A DNA stretch of 64,000 nucleotides from an uncultured Acidobacteriota bacterium (lineage in GTDB: Bacteria > Acidobacteriota > UBA6911): positions 4,922 to 68,921 of the forward strand of contig CAYZTZ010000005.1 in the NCBI GenBank assembly GCA_964481255.1, in the 5' to 3' direction. Shown piece after piece: positions 32,132 to 59,670 of this stretch. The notes beneath the pieces were generated by a model. It was not told the DNA's origin. It searched no databases and worked only from the letters and a program-made list of their open reading frames with translations. Made by a program: the position numbers and the translations under genes. Position 1 is the first letter of the stretch, and the number at the start of each line of letters is the position of its first letter.

Positions 32132-32370
32132 AGGCCTCTTCCCGATATTCGGCAAGCTTTTTTCCCTTCTAAAACGTGATTGAAACAACGGCCTTCGGCA
32201 ATGTCAATGGAAGAATGCAAACACCCCTGCAGGCGGGCCGGCGGTCCAGGCGCGCAGAACCCCGGGCTTCCAATTGCCGGCCCTTTTCGGGCGCAGGGGG
32301 AACGCATTCGCCGCGAGGCCGGGAAAAGGAGGCGTTTCAATGATAGAATGCCGGATGGGGGAGAGCGCTT

Positions 32371-33648: not shown

Positions 33649-33975
33649 GCGATCCGTCACCTGCCATCGCCGCCGGACTCCGCCGACGAGCTTGCCCAGG
33701 CCGCTTCGCAGGAAAATTAGAGAGACCACGGGGTTATGGAGGTCGTGCAGCTGCCGCCAGTGACGGGCGTCCGGGCGCCCCATCATGGAATGAGGTGAGC
33801 CCATAATGACATCCCCCGCTGAGATGGAAAAGTACCGGAAAGAGTCCGAGGGGGACGACGCGGATACGGCGAGAGAATAAAATTTATCTGAAGAACTGCA
33901 GGGCGGGCGCAGGAATACCTGTCCGGACCTCTTGCGGGCCGGATCCTGCCGCTCCACTGTCTATAGAGCGAACTG

Positions 33976-34896: not shown

Positions 34897-34946
34897 TCCG
34901 CAATTCCGGCATTGGGATTCCATGTCGGGAACAGGAGAGGCGTCTT

Positions 34947-42808: not shown

Positions 42809-43360
42809 CGTTGTTTCCTCCTTCATTCTTTCTGACACCGGAATTCCCCTCGGGCATGAAATCCGCCAAGGCCCGCGGACCCAACGGCTTCGTACCCCTC
42901 CACATGATCCTGCCTCTCCATATCACAGTCCTGGCCAAACCCTTGAACCGCCGGACCGAATAGATTCTGAAGCCGCCGGTGCACCGGTAGAGATCTTCTG
43001 TCACCGGAACCTACTTTTCCGGATCTAAAAGGCTGATATCTCAGGCCGGACAACCGCCGCTTCCATCGATTGCGGCGCTGGTCGATTACATTTGGGGCCG
43101 GGTAGCGGCCAATTTGCATTACAGTCAGAGATCCCTGGAAAAAGAGACGCCTCCGAAATGCGTAAAACCCGCGTCGCTGCGGTAAACAAGGACGCTTCTC
43201 GCTGCTTGTCGCATTTTGCCGCAATCGAATCAAAAGTCAGGTATCGGCGAAAACCATAAGGCTATGCGAATGGCATGTCCATACTGCGTTGTTGTCGAAA
43301 TGCGCCGGGATAAAGTCCCGTGAATGGCCGACAGCATATTGCCATCCCGCCATAGCGGCT

Positions 43361-44587
43361 CTAGGAAGTCACTGGACCGAATGCGCCGGCCATAAGATAC
43401 CGATCATATTCGGCCTCTGACATCCCCAAAATCTCAAGACAGATGTATTCATTATGCTCTCCCAAAAGGGGAGCCTCCCGATAAAGCCTCGCGGGAGTCC
43501 TTGACAATCGGGACGGCTGCCCTAAATAGGAGAAACTTCCCAGTTCCCTATGATTTCCTTTCCAGAAACACTCTCTTTCCTGCAGCTGCACATCCCTGCA
43601 AATATCTCTTGCATCCTGCACAACGCCCGCGGCAACTCCTTCCTGCTGCAGCAGAAACATGACATGTTCCGGTTCGAACCGGGATGTCCATTGCTCCACA
43701 AGATGGTTTAGCCTTACTTCATTTTTCTTCCTTGCCGGAAGCGTCGAGAATTCAGGATCTTTTGTCCATTCAGGATCTCCCATGGCTTTACACATGGATT
43801 GCCACTCGGCGTCCGTAAAGACAGTGATTGCGCACCAACGATCCTCCCCTTTGCAGCGAAAAACCCCATGCGGGGCGGCATATTCACAGGAGTTGCCGCT
43901 GGCCTGTGCCTGCGTGCCGCTCGTTGCATAATCAAGCAGAAGCGGGGCTATGAGCTGCAAACCGGCTTCGAATTGAGACACGTCAATCAGCTGGCCTTTG
44001 CCCGTTTTGTCCCTGTGATCGAGGGCGCTTAGGAGGGCGCTGGCTGCAAAGTGAGGGACGCAATAATCCGTATAGGCCACCATCGGGGATATCGGTTCTT
44101 CGTCGGGGAAGCCCACAAGATTGACGATTCCTCCCAACCCGTTAATATGGTGTCCCAGGCCGGGCTGAGTGGCCGAAGGGCCTGTTAATCCCTGATTGGA
44201 GCTTCGAATCACGACAATATCCGGCTTGATTCTGCTCAATTCATCATAGCCCAAGCCCCAGCTTTCCAGCACGCCGGGCCTGTGGCTGTCGGCCACAATA
44301 TCCGCCAGGGCCACCAATTTTATCGCGATCTCCTTCCCCGCCGCATTCTTTAAATCGAGGCTGATGCTGTATTTATTGGCTGCAAGATAGCTGAAGAACC
44401 CGGCCCGGTTTATGTTTGTTACACCATCCTTGAAAGGAGCGGAAGTCCGCAATAAGTCCGGCCTCTCCATGGATTCGACGCAGATCACGGTTGCTCCGTA
44501 ATCGGCCAAGTATTTGAGAGTCAGCGGACCGGCAATCGCCCACCCGAAATCAATCACATGAATTCCGGCAAAGACCTTTGGATCCAA
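43361..44587 (-). CDS. Family III (CaiB/BaiF-type) CoA-transferase
   Basis: GIHVIDFGWAIAGPLTLKYLADYGATVICVE N-terminal Rossmann block, Asp-containing TDYCVP at the catalytic position, C-terminal PLLGEHN. Confidence 0.85.
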   Translation of the reverse strand: MDPKVFAGIHVIDFGWAIAGPLTLKYLADYGATVICVESMERPDLLRTSAPFKDGVTNINRAGFFSYLAANKYSISLDLKNAAGKEIAIKLVALADIVADSHRPGVLESWGLGYDELSRIKPDIVVIRSSNQGLTGPSATQPGLGHHINGLGGIVNLVGFPDEEPISPMVAYTDYCVPHFAASALLSALDHRDKTGKGQLIDVSQFEAGLQLIAPLLLDYATSGTQAQASGNSCEYAAPHGVFRCKGEDRWCAITVFTDAEWQSMCKAMGDPEWTKDPEFSTLPARKKNEVRLNHLVEQWTSRFEPEHVMFLLQQEGVAAGVVQDARDICRDVQLQERECFWKGNHRELGSFSYLGQPSRLSRTPARLYREAPLLGEHNEYICLEILGMSEAEYDRYLMAGAFGPVTS

Positions 44588-44614
44588 GCGAATCCCTTCC
44601 TTTCACCAAAACAT

Positions 44615-45868
44615 CTAGATAGTTCCGGATTGCTGTAAGAGCTCCAGATCTCCTTTTGAAAAGCCGAGCTCCCCTTCATAAATGTCCCGGTTGTGCTCTC
44701 CCGGCAAAGGAGCTTTCCTCAACATCGTGAGCGGCGTTTCCGATAATTTTGCGAATGGGCCGGGATAGGTGATCCGTGCCTGAATTTCCGGATGATCAAC
44801 CTTGACCCAGAAGTCCCTGGCCTTTAATTGTGTGTTTTCAAAAATGTCTCGAGCTGTGGACACCGGGCAAAGCATGATCTTTCTTTCCAGGGCCTGGCTA
44901 TACAATTCAGCCTTTGTGTATCTCAAAAAAAGCTCCGCGATGGGGGCCTCCATTTGATCCTGCATTTCCTGGGTCTGACAGGACATGTCGAACACCGTCC
45001 AATCAAAATTTTCCATAAGCCCCGAAGCTAGACCCTCTTCCTGCAGCCACGCCGCCATGGCTCGATTGGTTTTAAGGCCGAAATCGCCGCCCAAAATATA
45101 AAAAATGACGTATCCATCCTTGCACCGCCATAACAGCTTCTGTTTTGTGTCCGTCCATCGGCCTGTGAGATAGGACCCCACGCGCCTGAGAATTTTATGA
45201 TTTAACTCCCACAGCGGAACTGCATTGGAGAGCTCCCATAGGACACACTCCTGCGCCGATACATCAACAAATTGCCCTTGCCCGGTCTTTTCACGATGGA
45301 AATAGGCGATAAGGCTCGCAGCGGCCGCATGGGCGCTGGCTAACATAAAGGACTGAGGAAAACTGATCCTCACGGGAGGCGCCTCCGGTCTTCCCGTGAT
45401 ATACAACAAGCCGCTCATAGCCATGACCACGAGGTCGGATGCTTTGAAGTTCCTGTAAGGTCCCGTTTGTCCAAACGGACTAATGGAGGTATAAATCATG
45501 CGCGGATTGAGCCCCTGGAGATCGGCGTACCCTAGTCCCAACGCATCCATATGTCCGGGAGGAAACGATTCAATGACAAAGTCGGCCTTGCTTGCCAGAG
45601 TTTTGAAAATTAGCCGTCCATCTCCGGAATCCAGATTTAAAGTAATCCCTCTTTTGCTCGCATTGTACGCGAACCATATAAGGCTTCTTTCCGGATCCGG
45701 GGTGTGACCATAGAAGGGACCGACACGCCTGTCCGGATCGCCTCCGGGCCTTTCGATTTTTATGACATCCGCTCCCAGGTCGGCCAGAATCCTGCCGCAC
45801 AGGTAGCCGTTCCCGTTCGTCAGATCCAGCACCCGCGGCGATCGAACCAGGCATTTCTTCTCTTCCAT
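44615..45868 (-). CDS. Family III CoA-transferase paralog (catalytic Asp position appears to be Ser)
   Basis: RVLDLTNGNGYLCGRILADLGADVIKIERPGGD, C-terminal PLPGEHN. The by-eye catalytic position reads PQSFMLAS. Confidence 0.8.
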   Translation of the reverse strand: MEEKKCLVRSPRVLDLTNGNGYLCGRILADLGADVIKIERPGGDPDRRVGPFYGHTPDPERSLIWFAYNASKRGITLNLDSGDGRLIFKTLASKADFVIESFPPGHMDALGLGYADLQGLNPRMIYTSISPFGQTGPYRNFKASDLVVMAMSGLLYITGRPEAPPVRISFPQSFMLASAHAAAASLIAYFHREKTGQGQFVDVSAQECVLWELSNAVPLWELNHKILRRVGSYLTGRWTDTKQKLLWRCKDGYVIFYILGGDFGLKTNRAMAAWLQEEGLASGLMENFDWTVFDMSCQTQEMQDQMEAPIAELFLRYTKAELYSQALERKIMLCPVSTARDIFENTQLKARDFWVKVDHPEIQARITYPGPFAKLSETPLTMLRKAPLPGEHNRDIYEGELGFSKGDLELLQQSGTI

Positions 45869-45872
45869 CCGC

Positions 45873-47057
45873 TCAATTTCCTTTACGGCCTAATCGTTTA
45901 TCCAGCGGGGAGGCATTATTCCGCCTGGATGGCAGAGCCACAATGGCATAGCCCGGCATTACGTTTTCCTGCCTTTGATTGATCGCAGATCGTTCGATAC
46001 GAACGCAGTAATCTCCATCTGCATCCATGTACTTGTCGGTAACCTTGCCCTTGACCCAAACGACGTCCGACAAATAGACGAACTTGTGGTACTCCGTATA
46101 ACTTCTCTTCAGCCAGCCGTCGTCTCCCATCCAATTCGTGATTAAATGAATACCCCAGCAGTGCCTTTGAACACCCACATCATAGGAATGTGGAAGTCCC
46201 ATTGCCTTTGCCGCCGCCCTGTTATAATGAACGGCAAAAATCGGTTCCAGCGCCGAGGTGTTGGGATCCCGGAAAGCCCAGGCCGGGTGTTTTCGATAGG
46301 ACCGCAAGGCCACGCCATGAGCCTGCAATCTCGGGATAGGAACCCCTCCGCCGATCACATAGGCTATCTCATCCGTGACTCCGAGCGGCCCTTTCACTAC
46401 CGGTTTCAGCTCATCTCCGATTTCAACGTCTTCCCAATACCGCGGCGTGGAACCTCGGACCTCCTCAGAAAGAATCTCCTGCTCAATCTGCCGCAATTGT
46501 TCCTCGGTCCAAGGATGCGGCAATTCAAGGTTGGCATACTTTTTTTTCTCGCGGGCCTTCGCTCTGGCGAAATGTACCACCCACCAATGATACCGGGCGA
46601 TCAGATCTCCGTGCTGGTTCCAATATTGATTTTGAAAATGGTCTATTACGGTCTCCTCAGCGTAGCTGCTTTTCTTTGGCCCGTCAAAGCTCTTGAATAC
46701 GCACTCTGCCGATATTTTATCCCCCATAAAAATCGGTTTCATGAATTCCACGTCGCAGCCGGCGTGAAATCCGCCCAGTCCCCTCCAGCCAAATATCACA
46801 TGAGAAAAACAGGCCCAGACGAACGAGGGGGGGGCGACAATACAGCCATACCGGCTCTTTTTTGCATATTCCGCATTACTCCACAGGGGATTCCAATCTC
46901 CTATTCCTTCGCTGAATTTTAGAATCGCCATTCTGGTCGCATACTCATTGTGCGTGCTTTCGTCCACGCGCAGTTTGAAGCCCAGTTTGGCGCGCATGTC
47001 CTCTATCATGTCTTGAGTGATTGTCGAATCGGGCATCACCACTTTTTTCTCGGGCAT
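45873..47057 (-). CDS. Double hot-dog (MaoC-like) acyl-CoA hydratase/dehydratase
   Basis: 394 aa, two hot-dog-sized halves. The N-terminal half (YATRMAILKFSEGIGDWNPLWSNAEYAKKSRYGCIVAPPSF) resembles the MaoC/FAS1-like dehydratase N-domain. Embedded between CoA-transferase genes with 4- and 49-nt gaps. Confidence 0.7.
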   Translation of the reverse strand: MPEKKVVMPDSTITQDMIEDMRAKLGFKLRVDESTHNEYATRMAILKFSEGIGDWNPLWSNAEYAKKSRYGCIVAPPSFVWACFSHVIFGWRGLGGFHAGCDVEFMKPIFMGDKISAECVFKSFDGPKKSSYAEETVIDHFQNQYWNQHGDLIARYHWWVVHFARAKAREKKKYANLELPHPWTEEQLRQIEQEILSEEVRGSTPRYWEDVEIGDELKPVVKGPLGVTDEIAYVIGGGVPIPRLQAHGVALRSYRKHPAWAFRDPNTSALEPIFAVHYNRAAAKAMGLPHSYDVGVQRHCWGIHLITNWMGDDGWLKRSYTEYHKFVYLSDVVWVKGKVTDKYMDADGDYCVRIERSAINQRQENVMPGYAIVALPSRRNNASPLDKRLGRKGN

Positions 47058-47106
47058 CCGTCACCTCTTTGGCTCGGTCGGACCGTTCCGGCCTTATGCC
47101 GCCGGG

Positions 47107-48465
47107 CTACCCCTCGCCAATTCCAATACCAAAGTGTTTTCTCAGTTCGGTGAGATAGTCCGGATCCATGGACCCTGCCTGTTGTTTTTCCAACAAATCA
47201 AGCCGCGTGGGCCTTCCGGGTGGAAAATCCGGAGTTCTGGAAATGACCTTATCCTTCTCCAGACGCACGAGCTCCTGCTTCGACATGCCCAACAATGAAC
47301 AAAAAACGTATTCGTTGTCCTCTCCGAAATGAGGAGCTCGCGTCAGGGCCAATTCCCTAAATCCTCGGAACTTTGCCGGCATCTGGCTGGGGATGGGCCT
47401 TGGACCGATGGCTTCTCCATGATCGATACACTGAAAGAAGCCTCGCTTCTTGAGGTGAGGATTCAGGTTGATTTCTTTCATGTTGAGCACGGCTCCGGCC
47501 GGGATCCTCAACCTCTGCAGGGTGTTCATTATTTCGAATTTGTCCCGGCGCATGGTCCATTGTTCCATCAGACAATCCAATTCAGGCTGTCGCGCAAGCC
47601 TGCCCTCCCTCGATGCGAACGCCCGGTCCCTTAACGCCTCAGGTTCATGGATCTCCCGGACAAAGCGCTTCCACTGGCCGTCGGTCTCTATAGCAATCGC
47701 CACCCACTCGTCGTCTCCCTTACAGCGATAACAGCCGTGAGGGGCGCATCCCGGATGCCGATTGCCCATGCGCCGGCGCTCGCGCTTATTCAGGATGCAA
47801 TCGAGAACTATGTCGCCCAGGTGGCAAAGAGTGGCTTCTCTTCCGGAAACATCCACGTACTGTCCCTTGCCGGTTATCTTCTGGTGGAATAGTGCGGTGA
47901 CCAGCGCCATGGCGGCATTGGCGCCTGTGACCCAGTCCCCGTAAGCGAAACCGGATAGAAGAGGCGGCTCATCCGGGTTGCCGGTGTTGTGCGTCAAACC
48001 GCTCATCCCCTCCATGCCCGGCACGTACATGTAGTAGTCCTTAAGCGGGCCGTCGTGTCCCAAGCCGCTCACCGAAACCATGATGATTCGAGGATTGATC
48101 TTCTTCAGGCGTTCGTAATTCAATCCCCAATGGGTCATTACCCTGGGCGAATAATTCTCGATGACCGCGTTGCTTATTCTTAAAAGCTGCCGGAAGATAT
48201 CGCGTCCCTTTTCGGTAGCCATATTGAGAGAGATGGCCCGTTTCCCTGCATTGAGGGAGTGAAACAGGCAGCCGCGATTCCAGGGATCGGCCCCCGGGTT
48301 GTTTTCGGGATAGACATTGGCTCGCGTAAATACATCCGGGCGTTGCCATGATTCTATCTTGAGAACCTCCGCTCCCAGTTCCGCCAATATCTTTGTGGCA
48401 ACGGGCCCGGCAAAAACCATGGTCAGATCGATAATTCTTATGCCGTCTAATATCTTGTATGCCAT
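47107..48465 (-). CDS. Family III CoA-transferase
   Basis: IRIIDLTMVFAGPVATKILAELGAEVLKIE, catalytic-position GDWVTG, C-terminal PHFGEDN. Confidence 0.85.
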   Translation of the reverse strand: MAYKILDGIRIIDLTMVFAGPVATKILAELGAEVLKIESWQRPDVFTRANVYPENNPGADPWNRGCLFHSLNAGKRAISLNMATEKGRDIFRQLLRISNAVIENYSPRVMTHWGLNYERLKKINPRIIMVSVSGLGHDGPLKDYYMYVPGMEGMSGLTHNTGNPDEPPLLSGFAYGDWVTGANAAMALVTALFHQKITGKGQYVDVSGREATLCHLGDIVLDCILNKRERRRMGNRHPGCAPHGCYRCKGDDEWVAIAIETDGQWKRFVREIHEPEALRDRAFASREGRLARQPELDCLMEQWTMRRDKFEIMNTLQRLRIPAGAVLNMKEINLNPHLKKRGFFQCIDHGEAIGPRPIPSQMPAKFRGFRELALTRAPHFGEDNEYVFCSLLGMSKQELVRLEKDKVISRTPDFPPGRPTRLDLLEKQQAGSMDPDYLTELRKHFGIGIGEG

Positions 48466-48480
48466 TATCGTTCCGATCGT

Positions 48481-49686
48481 TTATAGGATACCGGCACTCC
48501 GCAATCTCTCGATATCTTTTTGGGTGTACCCCAATCCTCGATAGATCTCACGGTTGTGTTCTCCCAGCAAAGGGGCTCGTCCGGAAAGCCATGGCGTCCT
48601 GCATAGTCTGGCAGGCGGGCCCGGGCTGGTGAATTCACCTAAACGTGGATGACGGATCGTGTCGAAGAACTTCCTGGCTCTCAATTGCGGGTCCTCTAAG
48701 AGTTCATGGACGCTCAAAACGGGAGTAAAAGCGAGCCGCAATTGCTGGGCTTCCGCCGTAATGTCCCATTTGTTGCGACTTATCAGCCACGGAATGACCA
48801 GGGCATCAAATCCTTCAGGATCGGCCATGCGGGTTCTTGGGTCGGTAAAAAACTCGCTGTCCTGTAATTCAGGTTTGTTGATCAGAAAAGGAATATTCGG
48901 CGCCCCTCCGATCCCGGGGGTGAGGCTGATCCAGCCATCCTTGCAGGGAACGCTGTAGCCGACGGGGTAACCGTGGATGGCAAACGGATTGGTCCGTCTG
49001 CTGAATCCCAGGTATGAATATTCCGTAATATGTCCCATGAGGGTGCTGGCGACACACTCCATCATTCCCACATCGATCGAAACGATATCCGGATTATTCG
49101 CTCGGCCCAGAAGCGCCGCCACCGTTGCTATATAGCTCAGCAGCCCCGTCGAGAATTCCGCCTGCACCCCCCCCAGCACGGAAGGTCTTGTTTTGGGTTT
49201 AGTCCCGGGTCTCATCGGATAGATCGCCCCGCCGAGGGCCGATACGGTGAGATTATTCGCGCGATAGCGGCGGTACGGCCCGGTTTTGCCAAAGGCTGAA
49301 ATTGAAGTCACAAGGATGCGGGGATTGATCTTCCGCAGTTTCTTCCTGGATAAACCCAATCTTCGGAGCCCTCCGGGGGCATAGCTTTCCACAAGGATAT
49401 CCGCGGTTTTCAGAATCCGCTTTGCTATTTCAATCCCCCTTTTGCTGTTGAGGTTTAAGGTAATGCTCTTCTTATTGGTGTTCAGATAGTGGAAAGTACC
49501 GCTCTTCTCGAGGTCATACTGATCATTGGGGAATGGTCCTATTTTCCGGGTGATATCCCCTTTGTTCGGTCTTTCAACTTTAATGACTTCGGCGCCGAAA
49601 GAACCGAACAGTTTTGTGCAATAGGGGCCTGCAATCCCCTGAGTCAGGTCCAGTATTCGCACCCCGCTGAATACCCGTTCGCCCAT
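48481..49686 (-). CDS. Family III CoA-transferase paralog (Glu at the catalytic Asp position)
   Basis: VRILDLTQGIAGPYCTKLFGSFGAEVIKVERP, catalytic-position QAEFSTG, C-terminal PLLGEHN. ATG 49686 (MGERVF) is preferred over the 23-aa longer track ORF. Confidence 0.8.
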   Translation of the reverse strand: MGERVFSGVRILDLTQGIAGPYCTKLFGSFGAEVIKVERPNKGDITRKIGPFPNDQYDLEKSGTFHYLNTNKKSITLNLNSKRGIEIAKRILKTADILVESYAPGGLRRLGLSRKKLRKINPRILVTSISAFGKTGPYRRYRANNLTVSALGGAIYPMRPGTKPKTRPSVLGGVQAEFSTGLLSYIATVAALLGRANNPDIVSIDVGMMECVASTLMGHITEYSYLGFSRRTNPFAIHGYPVGYSVPCKDGWISLTPGIGGAPNIPFLINKPELQDSEFFTDPRTRMADPEGFDALVIPWLISRNKWDITAEAQQLRLAFTPVLSVHELLEDPQLRARKFFDTIRHPRLGEFTSPGPPARLCRTPWLSGRAPLLGEHNREIYRGLGYTQKDIERLRSAGIL

Positions 49687-50345
49687 AAAATCACGCCCTT
49701 CTGCCAACGTGCGATGGATGCGTATCCCAAGACGCACACGTCCATGAGGACTCAAAACAAGTTTCCTGCACTTTGCTTGATCTCATGTTGCACACCGTTG
49801 ATATTTGACGATATTATTCCGCCGACAGAATCTGTTTCCAGTTTGCCGGCAATTGGATCCGTTGGCTGACCGGGAGCCCCTGCTGCGATTTCGGCCGGAG
49901 TCGCCGAGAGCGCAATCCAATACGCCCTTCCGCTCCTATTCCCTCCTTGAGCGGGGCAAAACAATATTATCATTGCAGGCAAAGCGTCGGACGCTCCAAT
50001 TCCACAACGGAAGGAGCTTATTGACGGATCGCTAACAGGCAACAGAAATTGCTTTATCTCCACAAAAATGATGCACCTAAACGCAGTTGCACATGAATTT
50101 ATTTGTAACATGGCGAAGCTTGTTTTAAAATGAAAAAAGAAGAACTGACCATCAGGCAAAGCAGGTCTTAGTTCTGGGAACCATTATGTTTATTGCTGCC
50201 AGGTTTCCCTCAAATGGTTGGGCTGTCTTGCCGTCCCCAATAGAAGGATTCGAAATGACAGCCGCGGATGAAGGTCAAAGCAAAACGCCGGAGGAGCGAG
50301 GCTTAAGGAATACTTGGGTTCCATAGAGCGTGGAGGGCGGAACAG

Positions 50346-51398
50346 ATGGCGGAATTTTCCAAGGATGAAGCCAAGGCCTGGGCAAAAAAGAACTTGAAAG
50401 GACTGGAAGCAGTAATTTTCCCGTCCTTTACACCGGATTTGAAAGAACTCGACGAAGAGGGTATTCGATATGATGTCAATCACCTCATTGCCAACGGTTT
50501 TACGTCCGTATTGGCAGCGCCGGAAGTTTGCGGAATGACCTTTGAAGAGCGAAAAAGGCTTGTCGAAATAGTATGCGACGAAGCAAAGGGTAAAATGCAC
50601 ACGTCGGTCGCTGTGATGCAGGATACCGTCGAGGAAGATATCGAGATGCTGCAGCATCTCGAAAAAGTCGGAGGAACTTTCGCCCTGCTCGGCCATCCGG
50701 TACAGTACCATCCCTGGTCGGTCGAGGATATTTTCCGGATGTATAAACACATGTGCGATTCGACAAATATCGCGATAGTGTTTTACGCCGGTCGACTCCA
50801 CACCAGGAAATTTCATCCGAGCTATTTTCCTCCGCAGCTCCTGCCACGTATAGCTGATATCCCTAACGTCGTGGCTATGAAAGTCGGCGGAGGGAGTTCG
50901 ATGGCCATTACGGTGATGTCTTTTCGTCTGTGCGGCGATAAAATCCTGGTCAACGACCCGACGCCTGAGAGGTGGTTTGTTACCGTGCCCCAATACGGTC
51001 AGCAATGGGCAGGCGCCGGCCCTTATTACGGAATGCAAACTCCCGAAAGACCGCGTATGGTCCATATGTTTAATCTGCTGGTGAAGGGTGAAATAGATAA
51101 AGCAATGGATATTTACTGGGAGGCGGCTCCTCCGGCAGAAGGCGGAGAAGGGCCGGCCGACTCCTATTTTCATACGGGCATTGTTACCGCTCTGAGCGAT
51201 AAATATTCACACTGGTGCAACGGGGGCAACGGCGGTACCGTCAGGCAACCTACAGGCCGGCTCCACGACTACCAGAAAGAGAGAATAAGGGCGGGGCTGA
51301 GAGCGCTGGGATTCACTCCTCGCGAACCCGAAGAAGAATTTTACGTCGGCAGGGTTAACTACGCCAAGGGAGCCAGATTGAAAAAATACAGTTCATAG
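50346..51398 (+). CDS. Divergent DHDPS/NAL-family (class I aldolase-like) protein, paralog 1
   Basis: TIM-barrel-sized (350 aa). Lys context IPNVVAMKV matches the DapA Schiff-base lysine strand. The GTTGE loop is replaced by PEVCGMT. RBS GGAGGG upstream. Confidence 0.7.
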   Translation: MAEFSKDEAKAWAKKNLKGLEAVIFPSFTPDLKELDEEGIRYDVNHLIANGFTSVLAAPEVCGMTFEERKRLVEIVCDEAKGKMHTSVAVMQDTVEEDIEMLQHLEKVGGTFALLGHPVQYHPWSVEDIFRMYKHMCDSTNIAIVFYAGRLHTRKFHPSYFPPQLLPRIADIPNVVAMKVGGGSSMAITVMSFRLCGDKILVNDPTPERWFVTVPQYGQQWAGAGPYYGMQTPERPRMVHMFNLLVKGEIDKAMDIYWEAAPPAEGGEGPADSYFHTGIVTALSDKYSHWCNGGNGGTVRQPTGRLHDYQKERIRAGLRALGFTPREPEEEFYVGRVNYAKGARLKKYSS

Positions 51399-51481
51399 CG
51401 GCAGATTGAATGAACGTATACCATATATATATATGCGGGACACCCGCCTCTATCCCGCACTATAAAGGAAGGGAGTTAACA

Positions 51482-52510
51482 ATGGAATTTACGAAATCAG
51501 AGGCCAAACAGTGGGCGAAAGAAAATTATAAGGGACTCGAGGGAGTATTAAGCCCTTCCTTTACGCCGGACCTGAGTCGACTGGACGAAGAAGGAATCCG
51601 ATATGATGTCCGGCATAACATAGACAAGGGGATGTTCAGCTTCCTTTGCCAGACAGAAGTTTGCGCAATGACTATGGAGGAGCGCAAGAGGTTCGTAGAA
51701 ATAGCCTGTGACGAAGCCAAAGGCAAGGTCCTGGTCTCCATGTTCACCGGCATCGATACTATGGAGCAGGATATCGAATTGTTACAGCATTTCGAGAAGG
51801 TCGGGGGAACTCATACCTTGCTTGGCTGGCCGGGAATGTTTTACGCTACGTCGGAAGAAGATATTTACCAGGCAACCAAAAAAGTATGCGATGCGACTAA
51901 TGTCGCCGTAGACCTCTGGCCAAAACCCAAGTTCGATTTCGGCAGATTTCATCCCAGCCATTTTAATCCCGAGCTGGTAGAAAGAATAACCGAAATACCC
52001 AACGTGGTTTCCATAAAAGCCTATATAAGCGACGGACTTGGAAAGTGGGCCGATATTCAACACCGTGTCGGCGATAAAGTTCTGCTACAGTCGGCTGAAG
52101 TAGAAGAGTGGCCTATTACAGTTGCAAAATATAAGCAGCAGTGGGCCGGACCGATAGATTACGTTATTTTCGATGAAACCGCCGATAATCCGCGCATCGT
52201 CAGAATGTTCAACCTGTTCAGGGAAGGCGAATTTTCAAAGGCGATGGAGCTTTACTGGGAACTGGCCCCGATAACGATTGGAGCCCGGGCTGCAATGCTT
52301 CAATCAGGTATGATGGGCGTGAAATACATGCAGTGGTTAACTGGGGGCAACGGCGGAATGTACAGACAGCCGACAATGCCGATATTTCAGCGCCAGAAAG
52401 ACGCAATGAGAGCGGGTCTGAAAGCCGCCGGTATCACCCCGCGGGAGCCCGAGGAAGAGTTCTATGTAGGAAGACTAAATTACGCCAAAGGCGCGAGGCT
52501 AAAGTATTAG
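51482..52510 (+). CDS. Divergent DHDPS/NAL-family protein, paralog 2
   Basis: About half the residues are identical by eye to paralog 1 (SEAKQWAKENYKGLEGV, LDEEGIRYDV, IPNVVSIK, TPREPEEEFYVGRLNYAKGARLK). ATG 51482 has a GGAAGGGAG RBS. Confidence 0.7.
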   Translation: MEFTKSEAKQWAKENYKGLEGVLSPSFTPDLSRLDEEGIRYDVRHNIDKGMFSFLCQTEVCAMTMEERKRFVEIACDEAKGKVLVSMFTGIDTMEQDIELLQHFEKVGGTHTLLGWPGMFYATSEEDIYQATKKVCDATNVAVDLWPKPKFDFGRFHPSHFNPELVERITEIPNVVSIKAYISDGLGKWADIQHRVGDKVLLQSAEVEEWPITVAKYKQQWAGPIDYVIFDETADNPRIVRMFNLFREGEFSKAMELYWELAPITIGARAAMLQSGMMGVKYMQWLTGGNGGMYRQPTMPIFQRQKDAMRAGLKAAGITPREPEEEFYVGRLNYAKGARLKY

Positions 52511-52627
52511 ACTACATTCCCACATTTCCCATAGATACAGCGTATACGTACGGCAATTCTTTTATTCCTGACACCGTATGCTCTGCATGGGAACAGGGAC
52601 GGAATAACGACGAGGAGACGGTCAAAA

Positions 52628-55129
52628 ATGGCGCTTAATTCCGGCGGCAAGTATGCCAAAGAAGTTGGGTCATGGCAGGAGATTTTTAAACCTGTCCGTT
52701 CCGCGCGGGTGGAAAAGGCCAGGGAAAGAGTGCGCAAAGAAGCCGAAATCTGCCTGGAACGCATTCGAGCCGAACTCAAAGCCTGTAACCAGTATAAAGA
52801 CCAGCCCTCCATCATTCGGCGAGCCCGCTTTCTTGAGACTTTCCTGAGGGAGAAAAGCATACTTATCCAGGAGGATGAACTCATTGTAGGCACCGTAGGA
52901 AGTAAGCCTCGCTCCGCTTTTATAACAACGGCGAATATCGCCTCCATCGAACAAGAGCTGGACGATCCCGTCAAGGACTTCTCCACTCGGCCATATGACA
53001 GGATTTTAGTTCATCCTGAGGAGAGAAAAGAATTAAGGGAAGAAATCATTCCGGCGGTTAAAGGCGGGGCCATCTCTCTTTTCGAACATAATTTGAAAAC
53101 TGTCGACCGGGATATTCTCGAACATACCGCTCCCGGAGTCTCATCCTGTCCGCATATACCCATTATCGGCGACGTATCGATGGCAAGAGAGGCCGGCCAC
53201 ATGTTCCTCAACTTTGAAAAGGCCCTTTATAAAGGGCTTCGAGGAATCAAGGATGAGGTCAGGGAGAAGATGGCGGAACTCGACCAGCCCTATCGCGGAT
53301 TTGACCGAAAACAGAGACGAGAGTTTTACGAATCCGTGCTCATCACCCTTGATGCGGCTACGGAATATTTCCAGAAATATGCCGGACGGGCGCGTGAGAT
53401 GGCGGCAAAAGAAGCCGCGCCGAATCGAAAGACGGAACTGGAACGTATCGCCGAGGTATGCGACCGGGTACCGGAAAATCCCGCTCGGGATTGGTGGGAA
53501 GCTCTACAGTCCATTTGGTTCCTGTTCACTCTGAGCTGGATGGAACACGCCACTTTTGCAGTACATTTTCTCGGCCGAATCGACCAGATTCTGTATCCCT
53601 TCTACAAGAAAACCGTGGAAGATGAGAAGAAAATGACCCGGGAAGAAGCCCTGGAGCTTCTGGAGTGTTTCCTGGTGAAATTCAACGAACCGGCCTGGGC
53701 GCTCAACTACGAGTGGTCGCAATGGGCAACCGGCCAGGGACTTTCCCAGACAATGGTCATCGGCGGACAGACCAGAGAGGGCAAAGATGCCTGCAACGAG
53801 GTGACCATGCTCGTGCTGGAAGCCATGGAGCAATTGCGTCTGAATCAGCCGGAATTCGCCATGAGGATATGGGAAGGGACCCCCGATAGATATCTTAAAA
53901 AGGCAACCCAGCTTATCCGCCTCGGGCTCGGCTATCCGAAATTCATCGGCGACCGGAAAGGAATTCAGATGGCAGCCAGGGGCTATCCGGACCTGGCCAT
54001 CGAGGACTGGCGCCAGTTCGCTGTTGCCGGATGTTCGGAGATAGGCCTGCCTTATATCACTATGGATAACGGCTATGAAGCCATCGCGCTGGCCTCCAAG
54101 TGGATAGAGCTGGTCTTGAGCAACGGCAAGTGCGCGGTATGCGGCAAGCAGATCGGACTTGAAACTGGCGATCCCAGGAAATTTAAAACCATGGAACAGG
54201 TGAAAGACGCCTACCGCAAACAGGTATTCTACTGGGGCGAGTATATGGCAAAAGCCGAGAGGATTTTCAAGGAAGCCCAGAGCGAATGGTATCCTGCTCC
54301 ATTCTGCTCGGCCCTTGCCGAGGGACCACTCGACAGGGGGCGAGATATTACCCGGGGCGGCGCCTGGTACACCGTGTACGGTCTTTTGCTGGCCAGCCTC
54401 GCTGACGCGGCGGATTCTCTGGGAGTAATAGACAAGCTTATCTACTGTGATAAAAAGATCACCTGGGATCAGTTGATTGAAGCGGTGAACGCCAACTGGG
54501 AAGGTTATGAAAACTTAAGACAGCTATGCGTCAACGGTGTCCCGAAATACGGGAATGACGACGATTACGCCGACGGTTGGGCCATCTGGGTAGCCGATGT
54601 CTGGGCCGACCTGATAGACTGGCTCAATACCCGAAAAGACCTTATGCCGAAGTGGGGAGGCAGATATCTGGCAGGAGGCCTGGTAGCAATAGCCAGTACC
54701 CAGTTCGGAGAATCGGTCGGCGCCACACCCAACGGGCGTAAACATCCCCAGCCGGTGGCCGATACCTGCTCTCCTGTACAGGGTGTCGACCGGAACGGTC
54801 CCAGCGCCGTCGTCAAGTCATTCAGTAAATTGCCTACTCACCGATGGGCGCTCTGCAGTCTTATAAACCTCCGGTTAAATCCGAATCTGTTTACATCCGA
54901 TGCTGACCTTGAGAGGTTTGCAGCTTTTATTCGAGCATGTGAAGAGTTAGGTTTGTACCATTTTCAGTTCAATATAATTTCTGCGGAACTGCTGCGTCAT
55001 GCAATGAAAGAACCCGAAAAACACCGGGATCTGCTGGTCCGGGTGGCCAGCTATGTCGCTTATTTTGTTGAGTTGAGTCCGAACCAGCAGATGGACATCA
55101 TCCATAGAACCGAGCACCAGGGCTGGTAA
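52628..55129 (+). CDS. Glycyl-radical-enzyme homolog (PFL2-like clade) whose radical-site Gly codon reads Ser
   Basis: 833 aa. Thiyl loop FAVAGCSEIG (Cys codon 54032-54034; the C-x-E arrangement is kept), YGNDDDYAD block, C-terminal RVASYVAYF where GREs have RVxG(Y/F). AGC at 55049-55051. Confidence 0.85.
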   Translation: MALNSGGKYAKEVGSWQEIFKPVRSARVEKARERVRKEAEICLERIRAELKACNQYKDQPSIIRRARFLETFLREKSILIQEDELIVGTVGSKPRSAFITTANIASIEQELDDPVKDFSTRPYDRILVHPEERKELREEIIPAVKGGAISLFEHNLKTVDRDILEHTAPGVSSCPHIPIIGDVSMAREAGHMFLNFEKALYKGLRGIKDEVREKMAELDQPYRGFDRKQRREFYESVLITLDAATEYFQKYAGRAREMAAKEAAPNRKTELERIAEVCDRVPENPARDWWEALQSIWFLFTLSWMEHATFAVHFLGRIDQILYPFYKKTVEDEKKMTREEALELLECFLVKFNEPAWALNYEWSQWATGQGLSQTMVIGGQTREGKDACNEVTMLVLEAMEQLRLNQPEFAMRIWEGTPDRYLKKATQLIRLGLGYPKFIGDRKGIQMAARGYPDLAIEDWRQFAVAGCSEIGLPYITMDNGYEAIALASKWIELVLSNGKCAVCGKQIGLETGDPRKFKTMEQVKDAYRKQVFYWGEYMAKAERIFKEAQSEWYPAPFCSALAEGPLDRGRDITRGGAWYTVYGLLLASLADAADSLGVIDKLIYCDKKITWDQLIEAVNANWEGYENLRQLCVNGVPKYGNDDDYADGWAIWVADVWADLIDWLNTRKDLMPKWGGRYLAGGLVAIASTQFGESVGATPNGRKHPQPVADTCSPVQGVDRNGPSAVVKSFSKLPTHRWALCSLINLRLNPNLFTSDADLERFAAFIRACEELGLYHFQFNIISAELLRHAMKEPEKHRDLLVRVASYVAYFVELSPNQQMDIIHRTEHQGW

Positions 55130-55162
55130 CAGACCGAAAGCGTACCGGGTAGAGGCATCGGC

Positions 55163-56092
55163 TTGACGAATCCATCGGCTTCCTCTGCAAAGAAACGATC
55201 TGTCCTTAGCATTGCCCGGATGACAGTTCATAACGGACCCGGAATACGAACCTTGATACTTCTGAAAGGCTGTCCCTTACGCTGCATCTGGTGTTCCACG
55301 CCTGAATCCTGGGAGGAGTCCCCGGAAATCGCCTTCCACCCGGATAAGTGTATCCTATGTAACGACTGTCTTCCGGTTTGTCCGAAGAATGCGATAACAA
55401 CCGGCGATAAAGCGGTGGTCCTAGACAGGGAGTTATGCGATAAATGCGGAAGGTGTGCCGATGTATGCCATACGGAAGCCCTGAGACTCCTGGGACGGCA
55501 ATATACAGCAGACGAATTGGTCTACGAGGTGAAGAAGGACGAAATTATCTATAAACATTCCGGAGGCGGCGTAACCGTTTCGGGAGGAGAGCCCCTGCTT
55601 GAACCGGAGTTTGCCGCGGAATTGCTCCGCGCTCTTAAACAGAACGGAATGAATACCGGAGCGGATACCTGCGGTTTTGTCCCCCGGAAAAATATCGAGG
55701 CCGTCCTCCCCTATGTCGACTTTTTTCTCTGGGATATCAAGCACATGGATGAGGATACCCACCGCAAACTAACCGGAGTATCCAACCGTCTCATCCTGGA
55801 CAACCTGCTTTTTGTCTCGGGTAATAATATACCCGTCTATCTGAGAATACCGGTGATACCCGGCTGCAATGATTCGGAGGAAAACCTGAGGGCCGTCTGT
55901 GATTTCGCCGCAGACCTGCCCTCGCTGGTTGAGATAAACATCCTGCCGTTGCACCACCTGGGCAAGGCAAGATATGTCGCTCTGGGCCTCGAATACCCCA
56001 TAGACGATATTCCTCTAGTTAAGGATGGTGTTCTCACGGAGATGCAACGCCTGGTGGAATCATTCGGCTTAAAGTGCAGCATAATCGGCTAA
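55163..56092 (+). CDS. Glycyl-radical enzyme activating protein
   Basis: HNGPGIRTLILLKGCPLRCIWCSTPES (Cx3Cx2C), CILCNDCLPVCP, CDKCGRCADVCH, GGVTVSGGEPL. TTG start at 55163 is uncertain. Confidence 0.9.
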   Translation: MTNPSASSAKKRSVLSIARMTVHNGPGIRTLILLKGCPLRCIWCSTPESWEESPEIAFHPDKCILCNDCLPVCPKNAITTGDKAVVLDRELCDKCGRCADVCHTEALRLLGRQYTADELVYEVKKDEIIYKHSGGGVTVSGGEPLLEPEFAAELLRALKQNGMNTGADTCGFVPRKNIEAVLPYVDFFLWDIKHMDEDTHRKLTGVSNRLILDNLLFVSGNNIPVYLRIPVIPGCNDSEENLRAVCDFAADLPSLVEINILPLHHLGKARYVALGLEYPIDDIPLVKDGVLTEMQRLVESFGLKCSIIG

Positions 56093-56104
56093 AGAAGAAG
56101 AAAG

Positions 56105-56341
56105 GTGCTGAATCCCAATATCGACGAATTGTTTTCCGGCTCGATAGACATTCAACTTCATTCCGGTCCGGACCGGACGCCGGAGCGCGTGGATGCCGTT
56201 GAAGCCGCTGAACAGTCTGCCGATTTCGGAATGAAAGCCATCGTGCTGAAAAACCACAGTCATCCCACCGCTCCGGCGGCTATCATCGCCCGGGAGATGG
56301 TGCCTGAAGTTGAGATGTTCGATTTTTGCAACTGTTCATAG
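56105..56341 (+). pseudogene. N-terminal ~70-aa fragment of a metal-dependent (amidohydrolase/PHP-like) hydrolase
   Basis: IDIQLHSGPDRTPERVDAVEAAEQSADFGMKAIVLKNHSHPTA resembles the first beta-strands/HxH region of amidohydrolase-fold proteins of ~290 aa. Ends at 78 aa, 30 nt before the next gene. Confidence 0.4.
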
Positions 56342-56370
56342 AGAATAAAGTGAAAGAAAGGAGGGAAATC

Positions 56371-58209
56371 ATGCGACGTTTTAAAACGGCGTTAATCTGT
56401 TTATGTGCTCTGGTGATCGCGTTGGCCGCAAGCGTGGTGATCCAGGGAAATATAAAGAACACCATGACAAGCGAAAAAGTAACAGTGCTGAACCCTAGAG
56501 GCATACCTCCTCCAATAGAAATGATACCCATGGCCCCCCGGCTCGATACCCTGGAGGGCAAAACAATATACGTCGCAGGTATAAATTTCCAACCGTTGCA
56601 TCAAGGCATGATAGAAATCCACAGAATACTCACCGAAAAATATCCCAAAACCACATTTATACTCAAGGTCAAAAAAGGCTCTTACTTAGTTAATGACCAG
56701 GAGCTGTGGGATGAAATCAAAGAAAAAGGCGACGCAGCGATAGTCGGCATCGGGCAACTGGATACCAATGCGCCGGCGACCGTCATCTTCTCCTCCATAC
56801 TGGAAAAAATGGGGATACCCACGGCGCCTGTTGTCACCGCGGGGTTTCCGAATCTCACGAGAAGCTTCGCCTACAAGAAGGGAATGCCTGAACTGCGATT
56901 GACTTTTATTCCCCATCCTTTCACGGCCAGGCCAGTCGAAGTACAACGGGAATATATAAGGGGTAAAGATCCGATAAGCGGCAAACCAATCATTGAACAA
57001 ATCGTTGAGGCCCTTACCAAACCGCTGACTGATAAAGAACGAAAGACAGGTACCATAGAAAGACCGATACAAAGAGTGCTGGGACCTGATACTCCCGAGA
57101 AACTGGCCAAGCTCTTTCTTGAAAAAGGATGGACCGATGGTCTTCCGATAATTCTTCCTACGGAAGAAAGAGTCGCCGAAATGCTCAAGGGAACAGGCCA
57201 CAAGCCGGATGAGGTCATCGGCACGATGCAGCCCACTCCTCCTAACGAGGCATGGGAAGGCTCTCTAAGGCAACTTGGCAGTAGTCAGGCGAAAGGAGGA
57301 CCTGAATTACCGGTAACTATGCAGCCCTCCCCTCCCTATGAGTCCTGGGAATATACTGTAAAGCACGTCGCTATCAATGCCGTGATGGCGGGAGCCGGTA
57401 AAGAGCATTTCCCTGTAATACTTGCTATAGCATCCACAGGAGTAACCTCATTATTCAGTTCCTGTTCCTCTTTCGCCAGAATGGTTGTCGCCAACGGGCC
57501 AATTCGCAAAGAGATAAACATGAATTCCGGACTGGCCGCGTTGGGCCCCTTCAATCATGCCAATTCCGTCATCGGCAGGGCGTGGACGTTGATATCCAAG
57601 AATCTGGGAGGCTCGATACCGGGCGAAACATATCTGGGGGATCTGGGCAATGCCCTCAACTACAACAATTTGTGTTTTGCGGAGAATGAAGAGTCTCTGC
57701 CTAAAGGATGGAATCCTCTGCATGTGCAAAAGGGCTATAAAGCAAAAGAAAGCGTAGTTAGCATATTCAGCGGATGGAGCTTGATTAATTATGGTGCTTT
57801 TAAGCCGTACCCGATTCACGAGGTCATCAGGAAATTGTTGATAAGCTTTGAAACCAGCGGCCCCGGCAGTTGCAGGCCGACTCTGTTATTAAGCCCGGTA
57901 ACGGCCGAAGATCTTAGGAATGAAGGCTTCGAAAGCAAGGAGAAGTTGAGCCATTGGCTCAAGGAAAACACCTATATGAGCCTCTGGAACTATTGGGCAA
58001 CGAGGCCTGAGGACCTGGCGTCTGCAAAAGCAGGGCGCGAGCCATTCGCGTCTATGCTGAAGCAGCCTCCCGGGGCGGACTCACCACAAAAGGCTATGAT
58101 GCCCTTCACCCAGGCTGAGATTCTGGTTGTGGGTGGGGGAACCGAGGTCTCCTGGCAGGCCGGAGATTTCGGGTACGTGGTATCAGCATCAGTGGATAAG
58201 TGGAGGTAG
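56371..58209 (+). CDS. Exported ~610-aa protein of unrecognised family, paralog P1
   Basis: RBS AAAGGAGGG plus ATG 56371. Signal/anchor MRRFKTALICLCALVIALAAS. Blocks shared with P2: VLNP, PRL..L..K.I, GW.DGLP...PT, A(I/V)NAVMAGA, FPVI.A, NGPI/SGPI, AEN(E/D)E. Confidence 0.6.
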   Translation: MRRFKTALICLCALVIALAASVVIQGNIKNTMTSEKVTVLNPRGIPPPIEMIPMAPRLDTLEGKTIYVAGINFQPLHQGMIEIHRILTEKYPKTTFILKVKKGSYLVNDQELWDEIKEKGDAAIVGIGQLDTNAPATVIFSSILEKMGIPTAPVVTAGFPNLTRSFAYKKGMPELRLTFIPHPFTARPVEVQREYIRGKDPISGKPIIEQIVEALTKPLTDKERKTGTIERPIQRVLGPDTPEKLAKLFLEKGWTDGLPIILPTEERVAEMLKGTGHKPDEVIGTMQPTPPNEAWEGSLRQLGSSQAKGGPELPVTMQPSPPYESWEYTVKHVAINAVMAGAGKEHFPVILAIASTGVTSLFSSCSSFARMVVANGPIRKEINMNSGLAALGPFNHANSVIGRAWTLISKNLGGSIPGETYLGDLGNALNYNNLCFAENEESLPKGWNPLHVQKGYKAKESVVSIFSGWSLINYGAFKPYPIHEVIRKLLISFETSGPGSCRPTLLLSPVTAEDLRNEGFESKEKLSHWLKENTYMSLWNYWATRPEDLASAKAGREPFASMLKQPPGADSPQKAMMPFTQAEILVVGGGTEVSWQAGDFGYVVSASVDKWR

Positions 58210-58431
58210 AACAGCCGGGAGAGATTGATATGGCAATGATGGGCCTGTCTTCCCGCCACCAACCGGCCAGAAACCTCGATAGATTATGGTGTTCCTATTC
58301 GGGCACGCAGCCGGAAACGGCCGATACAGACAAAGCCACACCTAAAGACCTATCGTGGCCTCCCCTGCTCGGCGGGTCAAGATGGCAGCGTGTATTAGCT
58401 GGGAAGTCGGACACGAAGAAAGGAGAAGCTG

Positions 58432-59670
58432 ATGTCTGAAGAAAAGAAAATAACGGCAATAACCAACGGCTTATTAATCGATGGTACGGGCGCCGACCCT
58501 GTTAAGAACGCGACAGTCCTTATCGAGGGATCGATAATCAAGAAAGTGGGAAAGCGTCAAGATATTCCCAGGGGTGCGACAGTCCTGGATGTTTCCGGGA
58601 AGACGGTGATGCCGGGGCTGATAAACGCGCATATGCACCTGGCGGGAGGCAGTTCCGGGATCGGACCGTCTCCGTACCGCCCCAGAGAAGTCGCAATGTT
58701 CAAAGCGGCGGATGATGCCAAGAATATGCTGGCCTCGGGATACACGACCGTGAAGGACTGCGCCGGGAGAAACGCCCCTTTCCTGAAGCAGGCCGTCAAA
58801 GAGGGCGTCCTGACAGGGCTTCCTCGCATCGTGGCTGCCTGTTGTGTATTGAGCCAGACAGGTGGTCCGCAGGATCAAGCATCCAAAGCTGGGAAATCTC
58901 GGGATGCACGGGAGAATGATGAAGCAGAGTTTCTCATTTGTGATGGCGTGGACGAGTGTATTAAGGCGGCTCGCTACTCTCTGCGGTTGGGTGCGGACTT
59001 CATTAAGGTCTTTGCCAGCATGAGTTTCTGGAATGCGGATCACGATTCTCCAAGCGGTGTCACATTCAGTATGGATGAGATGGAGGCTTTTGTGAAGACA
59101 GCCGCCCAGGTTGGCAAATTCGTTACGGTTCATTCTCAGAATCGCCATAGTTCGAAGATTGCCATACTTGCCGGGGTAAAGACCATAGACCACGCCAGCG
59201 GCTCGGATGACGAAGTCGTGTCGTTGGGGAAGGCGCACGGTGCGATTTTCGTATCGACTCTCGCATATCTCAGGGTGATGCTTGATGGAAAACTGGCCTC
59301 TCAAGCCTCCGCAATGATACAAAAGGAGTGGGATGCTTCCGTTGAGGCATACAGGAAAATGCACGATGCAGGAGCTGTCCTGGCCGCCGGCACGGATAGC
59401 TTCGGAGATGCAAGAGAAGGTGCGATGGAAATTGAATTGTTGAAGAAATATTGCGGTTTCACCCCGATGGAAGCCATTGTAGCAGCGACCAAACACGGCG
59501 CCGAAGCTTGTTTTATGGGTGATAAAACGGGGACGATAGAAGCAGGTAAGTACGCCGATATTATCGTTGTCGATGGCAACCCGCTGGCGGACATAAAGAT
59601 ACTGCAGGATGTCAATAAGATTAAAATAGTGATGTTGGAAGGCGACATCTGTGTCCATCGAGGGCTTTAG
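58432..59670 (+). CDS. Amidohydrolase-superfamily metal-dependent hydrolase
   Basis: ITNGLLIDGTG...VLIEGSIIKKVG...VMPGLINAHMHL (HxH), HSQN, DHAS and GTDS blocks. RBS AAAGGAGAAG. Confidence 0.8.
   Translation: MSEEKKITAITNGLLIDGTGADPVKNATVLIEGSIIKKVGKRQDIPRGATVLDVSGKTVMPGLINAHMHLAGGSSGIGPSPYRPREVAMFKAADDAKNMLASGYTTVKDCAGRNAPFLKQAVKEGVLTGLPRIVAACCVLSQTGGPQDQASKAGKSRDARENDEAEFLICDGVDECIKAARYSLRLGADFIKVFASMSFWNADHDSPSGVTFSMDEMEAFVKTAAQVGKFVTVHSQNRHSSKIAILAGVKTIDHASGSDDEVVSLGKAHGAIFVSTLAYLRVMLDGKLASQASAMIQKEWDASVEAYRKMHDAGAVLAAGTDSFGDAREGAMEIELLKKYCGFTPMEAIVAATKHGAEACFMGDKTGTIEAGKYADIIVVDGNPLADIKILQDVNKIKIVMLEGDICVHRGL

Follow-up and report, generated by a model that had tools for sequence, protein, structure and literature searches.

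The aminoacyl radical enzymes (AAREs) are glycyl radical enzyme (GRE) homologs with Ala, Ser or Thr in the radical position, and each AARE is encoded beside a dedicated radical S-adenosylmethionine (SAM) activase (PMC11528403; 2026 review PMC13450708). The seryl type is represented by DaSRE from Dethiosulfatibacter aminovorans, activated by its activating enzyme (AE) DaSRE-AE (Fu et al., J Am Chem Soc 2024; PMC11528403). Activated DaSRE gives a four-line electron paramagnetic resonance (EPR) signal, amounting to 13% spin per monomer, which was attributed to a seryl radical at C-alpha that couples to two beta protons; the S801G variant yields a glycyl doublet, while S801A and S801T are not activated (PMC11528403). 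According to the same study, the Ser of seryl radical enzymes (SREs) is encoded by AGY, one step from GGY, and its Table S2 lists 21 SREs, including proteins from Chloroflexi, Dehalococcoidia and Deltaproteobacteria metagenome-assembled genomes (MAGs) (PMC11528403). In the literature to mid-2026, as covered by the review (PMC13450708) and a literature search, no AARE has an assigned reaction. Here we analyze a gene at positions 52628..55129 of the forward strand in a 64,000-nucleotide (nt) stretch of DNA from an uncultured Acidobacteriota bacterium (contig CAYZTZ010000005.1; below, the window), which, judging by its sequence, is a member of this already published SRE family.

The gene starts with ATG and encodes a protein of 833 amino acids (aa) with the 10-stranded barrel fold of PFL-like GREs and Ser at the radical site; its 833 codons contain neither stops nor frameshifts. 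The protein matches the Pfam domains PFL-like (1.4e-157) and Gly_radical (2.2e-22), and a phmmer search of PDB chain sequences yields full-length matches to the choline trimethylamine-lyase CutC and other GREs (best E = 1.5e-131). The radical finger, R-V-A-S-Y, is located at 55040..55054 (cgg gtg gcc AGC tat, forward strand), with Ser808 encoded by AGC at 55049-55051. In the phmmer alignment with the sequences from CutC crystal structures, 'llvrvasyvayfvel' of the SRE is placed on 'lvvrvagysaffvel', and thus Ser808 falls exactly in the column of the radical Gly of the CutC RVAGY finger. The finger itself (LLVRVASYVAYFVELS) contains no Gly, and so lacks the residue that defines canonical GREs, Gly in RVxG[FWY].

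The thiyl loop, G468-C469-S470-E471 (within A-G-C-S-E-I-G), is encoded at 54029..54040 of the same strand and contains the catalytic Cys followed, in position +2, by the Glu typical of GRE eliminases, so that the Cys-x-Glu loop of GRE 1,2-eliminases is present (G-C469-S-E471). C469 is invariant in all 150 aligned SRE and GRE sequences, and E471 is conserved in at least 90% of the SRE set. The sequence-only reading of this DNA had reported the RVASY finger with AGC in an 833-aa GRE homolog, the absence of an alternative Gly nearby, the AGCSEIG loop with a complete activase gene 33 nt downstream, and a single G-to-A step separating AGC from GGC. These observations hold, the second of them for the finger, and the last one agrees with the published codon argument (PMC11528403).

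Further characters assign the gene to the SREs. Besides the GRE fold, Ser in the RVxG[FWY] finger, the AGY codon and the loop Cys, these are the adjoining activase with a CX3CX2C motif (see below) and the position in the SRE clade. In a neighbour-joining tree (a distance tree only, without bootstrap) the protein belongs to a single monophyletic Ser clade, apart from its Gly, Thr and Ala neighbours. When representatives clustered at 50% identity were searched exhaustively, the top two carried Ser, with 891 bits (59% identity) and 859 bits (48%), and the next one is a Gly enzyme with 549 bits and 39% identity; given this fall from 859 to 549 bits, the SRE clade is sharply bounded. The homolog P0027, 79% identical to the window SRE, is MBN2062047.1, an SRE entry in Table S2 of Fu et al. 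(PMC11528403). Hence the view that a Ser-containing enzyme of this kind would be unprecedented has to be given up: SREs were published in 2024 (PMC11528403), with this close relative among them.

Frameshift-tolerant alignments give an identity of about 44% between the window enzyme and DaSRE, and of about 46% between the window activase and DaSRE-AE; both values are approximate, as the reference was the codon-optimised DNA from the paper's supplement, damaged by optical character recognition (OCR) and containing many indels. The 30% identity to DaSRE obtained by plain tblastn was discarded as misleading, since the query suffered from the same OCR damage and indels. A scan of genome contigs with the motifs PAR[DN]WWEA and CG[KR]QIG[PL]xTG did not retrieve Dethiosulfatibacter.

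Several independent lines show that the Ser is neither an error nor a fresh lesion. Homologs were collected from a 5.8-billion-protein collection, and the best 120 clusters, comprising 1,234 member sequences, were examined (one cluster is truncated). The residue at the radical position of the closest homologs, a check proposed in the sequence-only reading, is Ser in 119/119 full-length clusters, down to 54% identity, and the Ser-bearing clusters come from JGI, ENA, NCBI and Logan assemblies. Likewise, Ser occupies this position in 45/45 SRE rows of a separate alignment (A2). An identical protein with the same AGC codon is encoded on the JGI metagenome contigs L001 and L002, which were assembled independently. 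At the DNA level, all 54 Ser sites in the fetched related loci are AGY (34 AGC and 20 AGT), with no TCN codon, and therefore Ser has been kept through synonymous turnover. Moreover, dN/dS of the window gene against 11 orthologs is 0.05-0.08 (Nei-Gojobori; 82-88% amino acid identity, dS 0.7-1.9), and the open reading frames (ORFs) of all 11 orthologs are intact.

The cognate SRE-activating radical-SAM enzyme is encoded at 55163..56092 of the forward strand (309 aa, TTG start), 33 nt after the SRE stop, and AGAGG is found about 7 nt upstream of the TTG. It contains the CX3CX2C motif (C37/C41/C44, 55271-55294), two ferredoxin-type Cys motifs and GGEPL; Pfam assigns Radical_SAM and Fer4 domains, and the score with TIGR02494, the GRE-activase subfamily, is 337 bits against a cutoff of 174. 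In public gene calls the activase starts at an internal ATG, which gives proteins of 191-196 aa (L001 4306-4881; L003 12857-13447) that lack the ferredoxin domain as well as the HNGPGIR loop and CX3CX2C. The complete ORF begins with TTG 55163; across loci, 63-86% identity is seen in the N-terminal part (55163-55516 in the window).

In the activating enzyme of pyruvate formate-lyase (PFL-AE), Asp16 of the DGxGxR loop and Asn38, which follows CX3CX2C, are hydrogen-bonded to the substrate loop at Gly734 and Ala736 (PMC9326890). The corresponding regions of the window activase read H-N-GPGIR ... C-I-W-C-S-T-P-E. In particular, Asn24 (55232-55234) replaces PFL-AE Asp16, and Thr46 (55298-55300) replaces PFL-AE Asn38, both codons being on the forward strand. 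The Asn/Thr pair is present in 39/39 SRE-adjoining activases of the fetched loci, including two with variant motifs (HNSPGIR in L012 and HNGPGFR in L042). Among the Gly-enzyme-linked activases of the fetched loci, the one of the second GRE of the window included, Asp16 is retained in 6/6 and Asn38 in 5/6, the exception being L056 (WCSSPQT). DaSRE-AE carries both changes, while DgARE-AE and FpTRE-AE, the activases of an alanyl (ARE) and a threonyl (TRE) radical enzyme, keep Asp and Asn. The best 120 database homologs of the window activase (59-87% identity) show HNG.G.R and C-S-T-P-E in 120/120 cases; a regular expression matched 117/120, and in the other three, truncated or offset, the motif is visible.

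This switch is not mentioned in the main text of Fu et al. (PMC11528403). The activase appears specialised for Ser, with the changes Asp16 to Asn and Asn38 to Thr, and from the covariation, together with the literature based on the PFL-AE structure, we infer that the Asn/Thr pair may be the determinant of Ser specificity.

The structure of the window SRE was modelled with AlphaFold (AF2) from the 150-sequence alignment (pLDDT 93.5, pTM 0.93), which was used instead of an alignment of only 10 sequences (pLDDT 56.6). Ser808 is placed at the tip of a hairpin formed by strands E803-806 and E809-812 of the model. Foldseek retrieves 1,2-propanediol dehydratase, glycerol dehydratase, CutC, HypD and related eliminases with TM-scores of 0.87-0.91 and a root-mean-square deviation of about 2 Å, the best matches being 1r8w, 5i2g and 5fau (propanediol/glycerol dehydratase, CutC; TM 0.90-0.91). 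CutC residues Tyr208 and Asp216 are aligned with His176 and Ser184 of the SRE (by eye, in the phmmer alignment), and the window SRE shows neither the substrate-binding residues of a characterised eliminase nor an equivalog-level score.

Comparison of the SREs with 98 Gly enzymes reveals 39 SRE-specific positions, with a residue conserved in at least 90% of the SREs and present in at most 5% of the Gly enzymes; positions 174, 389, 415, 461, 505, 567 and 793 are among them. Examples are the C-P-H-I-P motif (Cys174 at 53147-53149, with His176 on CutC Tyr208), Trp415 instead of His, Trp461 instead of Ala, Pro567 instead of the usual Cys, and Met793 instead of Gln. The 39 substitutions may be adaptive, either to the seryl radical or to a new pocket.

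Taken together, these observations make it very probable that the gene encodes a functional SRE of the AARE branch of the GRE superfamily. The downstream radical-SAM activase would cleave SAM reductively, and the resulting 5'-deoxyadenosyl radical would take the C-alpha hydrogen of Ser808, giving a stable C-alpha seryl radical, as has been shown for DaSRE and may be expected here. In turnover, the radical would be passed to Cys469 to form a thiyl radical; this step is suggested by the GRE/AARE precedent, the invariance of the Cys, the finger and Cys loop modelled with a GRE-like architecture, and the thiyl evidence on a TRE variant reported by Fu et al. (PMC11528403). The thiyl could then abstract a hydrogen from the substrate and set off a Glu471-assisted 1,2-elimination of the dehydratase or lyase type; we hold this with low confidence, as it follows from the Cys-x-Glu loop and from the closest sequence and structure relatives. 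Speculatively, the product may be handled by neighbouring enzymes as an aldehyde or acid and a coenzyme A (CoA) thioester.

Some of the observations weigh against this scheme. Radical formation is carried over from DaSRE, with only about 44% identity (an approximate value, from OCR-damaged DNA), and it is from covariation only that a role of the Asn/Thr switch in activase function is proposed. The eliminase assignment derives from the Cys-x-Glu loop and the nearest relatives, in a class with no known reaction (PMC13450708), and no NCBIfam equivalog cutoff is reached (CutC 486 vs 1050, HypD 466 vs 1100, HpsG 498 vs 1000). The gene neighbourhood is conserved in part, in 14-23 of the 51 loci per neighbour family other than the activase (33/51), and since the DUF6282 gene next to the activase is cut to 72 aa, the local pathway may be incomplete.

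Other explanations of the Ser codon have been considered as well. That it is a sequencing, assembly or minor population variant of an ordinary GRE, with GGC as the true codon, has in its favour the single G-to-A change, yet it is refuted by the Ser in 119/119 full-length clusters, by the same protein with AGC on two independently assembled contigs, by the AGC or AGT codons of 54/54 sites, and by a partner activase with a clade-specific signature; its probability is practically negligible. Hardly more credible is a recent loss of function, with the GRE gene turning into a pseudogene as the island around it decays, a scenario to which one could relate the adjoining DUF6282 remnant of 72 aa, the ortholog L017/P0017 called as a truncated protein of 771 aa and the damaged-looking activase by the L012 ortholog. 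This possibility, also raised in the sequence-only reading, is refuted by an ORF free of stops and frameshifts, dN/dS of 0.05-0.08 with intact orthologs, Ser kept in a family diverging to about 47-48% identity, the invariant Cys469 and an intact, conserved activase.

The remaining suggestion of that reading, a real Ser paralog with non-radical or altered chemistry, stands in its first part, the paralog being real, while non-radical chemistry is unlikely, because the characterised member of the family forms a C-alpha seryl radical. Without a C-alpha radical, the protein could be a pseudoenzyme or a scaffold, or Ser808 could be modified otherwise, C-beta abstraction leading to formylglycine or dehydroalanine. 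Here one may cite the stereochemistry of L-Ser, whose side chain takes the place of the pro-S hydrogen that PFL-AE removes from Gly (an issue raised in PMC11528403), the two auxiliary Fe-S motifs of the activase and the distance from DaSRE. However, the DaSRE EPR signal fits a C-alpha radical and S801G gives a normal glycyl doublet (PMC11528403), the thiyl Cys is invariant, the pairing of enzyme and activase is kept under strong purifying selection, and auxiliary clusters are common in ordinary GRE activases, so we regard such variants as improbable; Ser808 as a formylglycine precursor was judged unlikely given the published EPR assignment. Doubtful, but by no means negligible, is a functional SRE with chemistry other than 1,2-elimination, e.g. 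decarboxylation, C-C cleavage or addition. No AARE reaction has been reported (PMC13450708), GRE decarboxylases also carry Cys-x-Glu, and the SRE-specific positions, such as Trp415 for His and Pro567 for Cys, indicate that the pocket may be remodelled. On the other hand, each of the best matches, by sequence and by structure, is an eliminase (CutC, propanediol/glycerol dehydratases, hydroxyproline dehydratases), and Fu et al. tentatively favour elimination too (PMC11528403).

The SRE family is far bigger than the 21 published sequences, and the closest genome-resolved relatives of the window SRE come overwhelmingly from Dehalococcoidales/Dehalococcoidia MAGs. Single Dehalococcoidia MAGs contain two to four diverged SRE paralogs with 53-60% identity to the window protein; these include fen_1014 (L033, L035, L037, L054) and LABRr1A1B1C bin_136 (L028, L030, L043), and further same-MAG sets are L006/L051, L020/L032 and L012/L025. 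Same-MAG paralogs differ in the residue that follows the thiyl Cys (CSE, CTE, CVE), and this variation suggests that one organism may use several substrates. The finger also varies within the SRE clade: RAGSY in P0038 and P0053, RVASS in P0055 and P0074, RVAST in P0087, L025 and L032, and RVGSF in L033, i.e. a few fingers have Gly just before Ser, and a few have no aromatic residue after it.

Three loci contain paralogs with Ala at the radical position (GCC; RVAAY): L039 7981-10581, L040 3619-6129 and L042 10270-12819. Ser paralogs lie in tandem with them in L040 (917-3409) and L042 (7701-10247), and about 4 kb apart in L039 (1557-4085). One SRE-type (Asn/Thr) activase follows the Ala/Ser pair in L040 and L042, and none was detected in L039. 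In the neighbour-joining tree these Ala paralogs (about 50% identity with the window protein) fall within the SRE clade, and this position suggests that alanyl enzymes arose twice, the published ARE clade being the other case.

Apparent disruptions are seen in three of the related loci. The match to L017 (10001-12500, P0017), on a contig of a MAG labelled Acidobacteriota, extends over 2,500 nt and is consistent with a 1-nt indel; L041 (10001-12654) gives a split match to the SRE, and the alignment of the L012 activase (4391-4558, HNSPGIR) stops early. Errors of assembly or sporadic decay could account for these cases.

Gene neighbourhoods were compared over 51 non-redundant SRE loci; since many of them are short contigs, the counts are lower bounds. 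Along with the activase (33/51), the most frequent neighbours are MaoC-like proteins (23), DUF6282 (21), DHDPS-like proteins (20), CoA-transferases (20) and UGSC (14), followed by MarR (12), aldehyde:ferredoxin oxidoreductase (AFOR, 11) and URO-D (6). In the window, two tandem divergent genes of the DHDPS/aldolase family (50346-51398 and 51410-52510, forward strand; Pfam DHDPS 2e-8 and 9e-17) lie directly upstream of the SRE gene, and NCBIfam and PDB searches yield weak matches of their products to DapA, NanA and KdgD. Between the activase and UGSC genes there is a DUF6282 remnant (56117..56320, forward strand) comprising the N-terminal ~72 aa: tblastn shows 47% identity to the L004 DUF6282 protein over residues 5-72 only, and the gene caller reports a 78-aa DUF6282 product. 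Full-length DUF6282 proteins (~290 aa) are encoded after the activase in 21/51 related loci, and in the closest relative, L017, the remnant is collinear with 90% nt identity. It is followed by a UGSC-family gene with a 627-aa ORF (56326..58209, forward strand; Pfam UGSC 2.4e-17; 14/51 loci), which has a paralog at 61605-63425; genes for an amidohydrolase and an SGL-type protein are also found near the window SRE.

On the opposite strand, four genes for family-III CoA-transferases (Pfam) surround a gene for a MaoC-like double-hotdog hydratase (45873-47057) at 43361..49755. The NCBIfam families that come closest to these CoA-transferases are of the succinate-glutarate, formyl-CoA and succinyl-CoA:mesaconate types, all below cutoff. 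The AFOR gene (40973-42838) is located near them, also on the strand opposite to the SRE operon. In NCBIfam and PDB searches, the DHDPS-like, MaoC-like and CoA-transferase proteins have sub-threshold or generic matches only, and DUF6282 has none; thus the substrate is not narrowed by these searches. The neighbours weakly hint at catabolism of a hydroxylated carboxylic or dicarboxylic acid via an aldehyde or acid and CoA thioesters. A promoter and terminator scan of 49500-58500 gave counts no different from those in shuffled sequences, and therefore it is uninformative on the operon structure.

The window contains a second, canonical GRE gene (34893-37337, forward strand, 814 aa), with the RVAGY finger, Gly encoded by GGA at 37260-37262, and a Cys451-V-D loop. 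Its activase (33976-34896, forward strand), with the canonical anchors HDGPGIRT...WCQNPES, is encoded just upstream, with a 4-nt overlap between the two genes. The two enzymes share the superfamily, the pairing with an activase and the genome fragment, while the second one has Gly, is a distant paralog of the SRE and falls among Gly enzymes in the neighbour-joining tree. The second pair is thus a same-genome control and not a part of the SRE system.

Six other ORFs of 560-645 aa (7125-8906, 9024-10961, 17962-19791, 22374-24083, 29767-31449 and 32128-33957) have no Pfam match at 1e-5. A family of ~600-aa ORFs uniting them with the UGSC genes was rejected, as they are similar neither to one another nor to the UGSC genes. 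In DNA with 58% GC, such long ORFs could be spurious, or they could encode novel proteins.

Ser at a position where every GRE was thought to need Gly is a real paradigm shift, and it would have been striking before October 2024. As Ser for Gly was verified experimentally in that year, the window adds a family member and not a discovery. The contributions of this analysis are the size of the family and its bias towards Dehalococcoidia, the switch of the activase anchors, the recurring neighbourhood and the nested Ala paralogs. The current annotations, 'formate C-acetyltransferase' and 'glycyl radical protein', are misleading for SREs, and the Asn/Thr signature could serve as an annotation marker as well as explain how activases discriminate between Ser and Gly.

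The recurring neighbour genes of this locus and its ~50 relatives can seed substrate hypotheses. We tentatively propose, as a possibility that may well fail, a joint picture of a large radiation of SREs, in genome assemblies mostly from Dehalococcoidia, in which the Asn/Thr pair determines the specificity for Ser and the neighbourhood is the first tractable pathway context for an AARE. If so, the pair would allow a GRE-type activase to abstract the C-alpha hydrogen of L-serine, and the neighbourhood with CoA-transferase, MaoC-like, DHDPS-like, DUF6282, UGSC and AFOR genes would help to assign a reaction to an AARE.

Among the known systems, the pair studied here shares with DaSRE and DaSRE-AE the GRE fold, Ser encoded by AGY in the RVxG[FWY] finger, the thiyl Cys, and a radical-SAM activase adjoining the enzyme gene, with CX3CX2C and the Asn16/Thr38 signature. 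The differences are that the relatives of the window SRE in the assemblies are mostly environmental Dehalococcoidia/Chloroflexota, while DaSRE comes from a Firmicute isolate, and that the gene neighbourhoods are not alike. With TREs and AREs it shares the idea that defines the class, namely that a dedicated activase places the C-alpha radical on a residue other than Gly; however, the radical-site residue is different, neither Asp16 nor Asn38 is replaced in the ARE and TRE activases examined, and the published AREs form a separate clade. As in the canonical GRE 1,2-eliminases (CutC, the B12-independent glycerol and 1,2-propanediol dehydratases, HypD, IslA, HpsG), we observe the same fold (TM 0.87-0.91), 29-32% structure-based identity (Foldseek), the Cys-x-Glu loop and an activase with a ferredoxin domain, whereas the Ser radical residue, the 39 clade-specific substitutions and scores below every equivalog cutoff set the window SRE apart from them.

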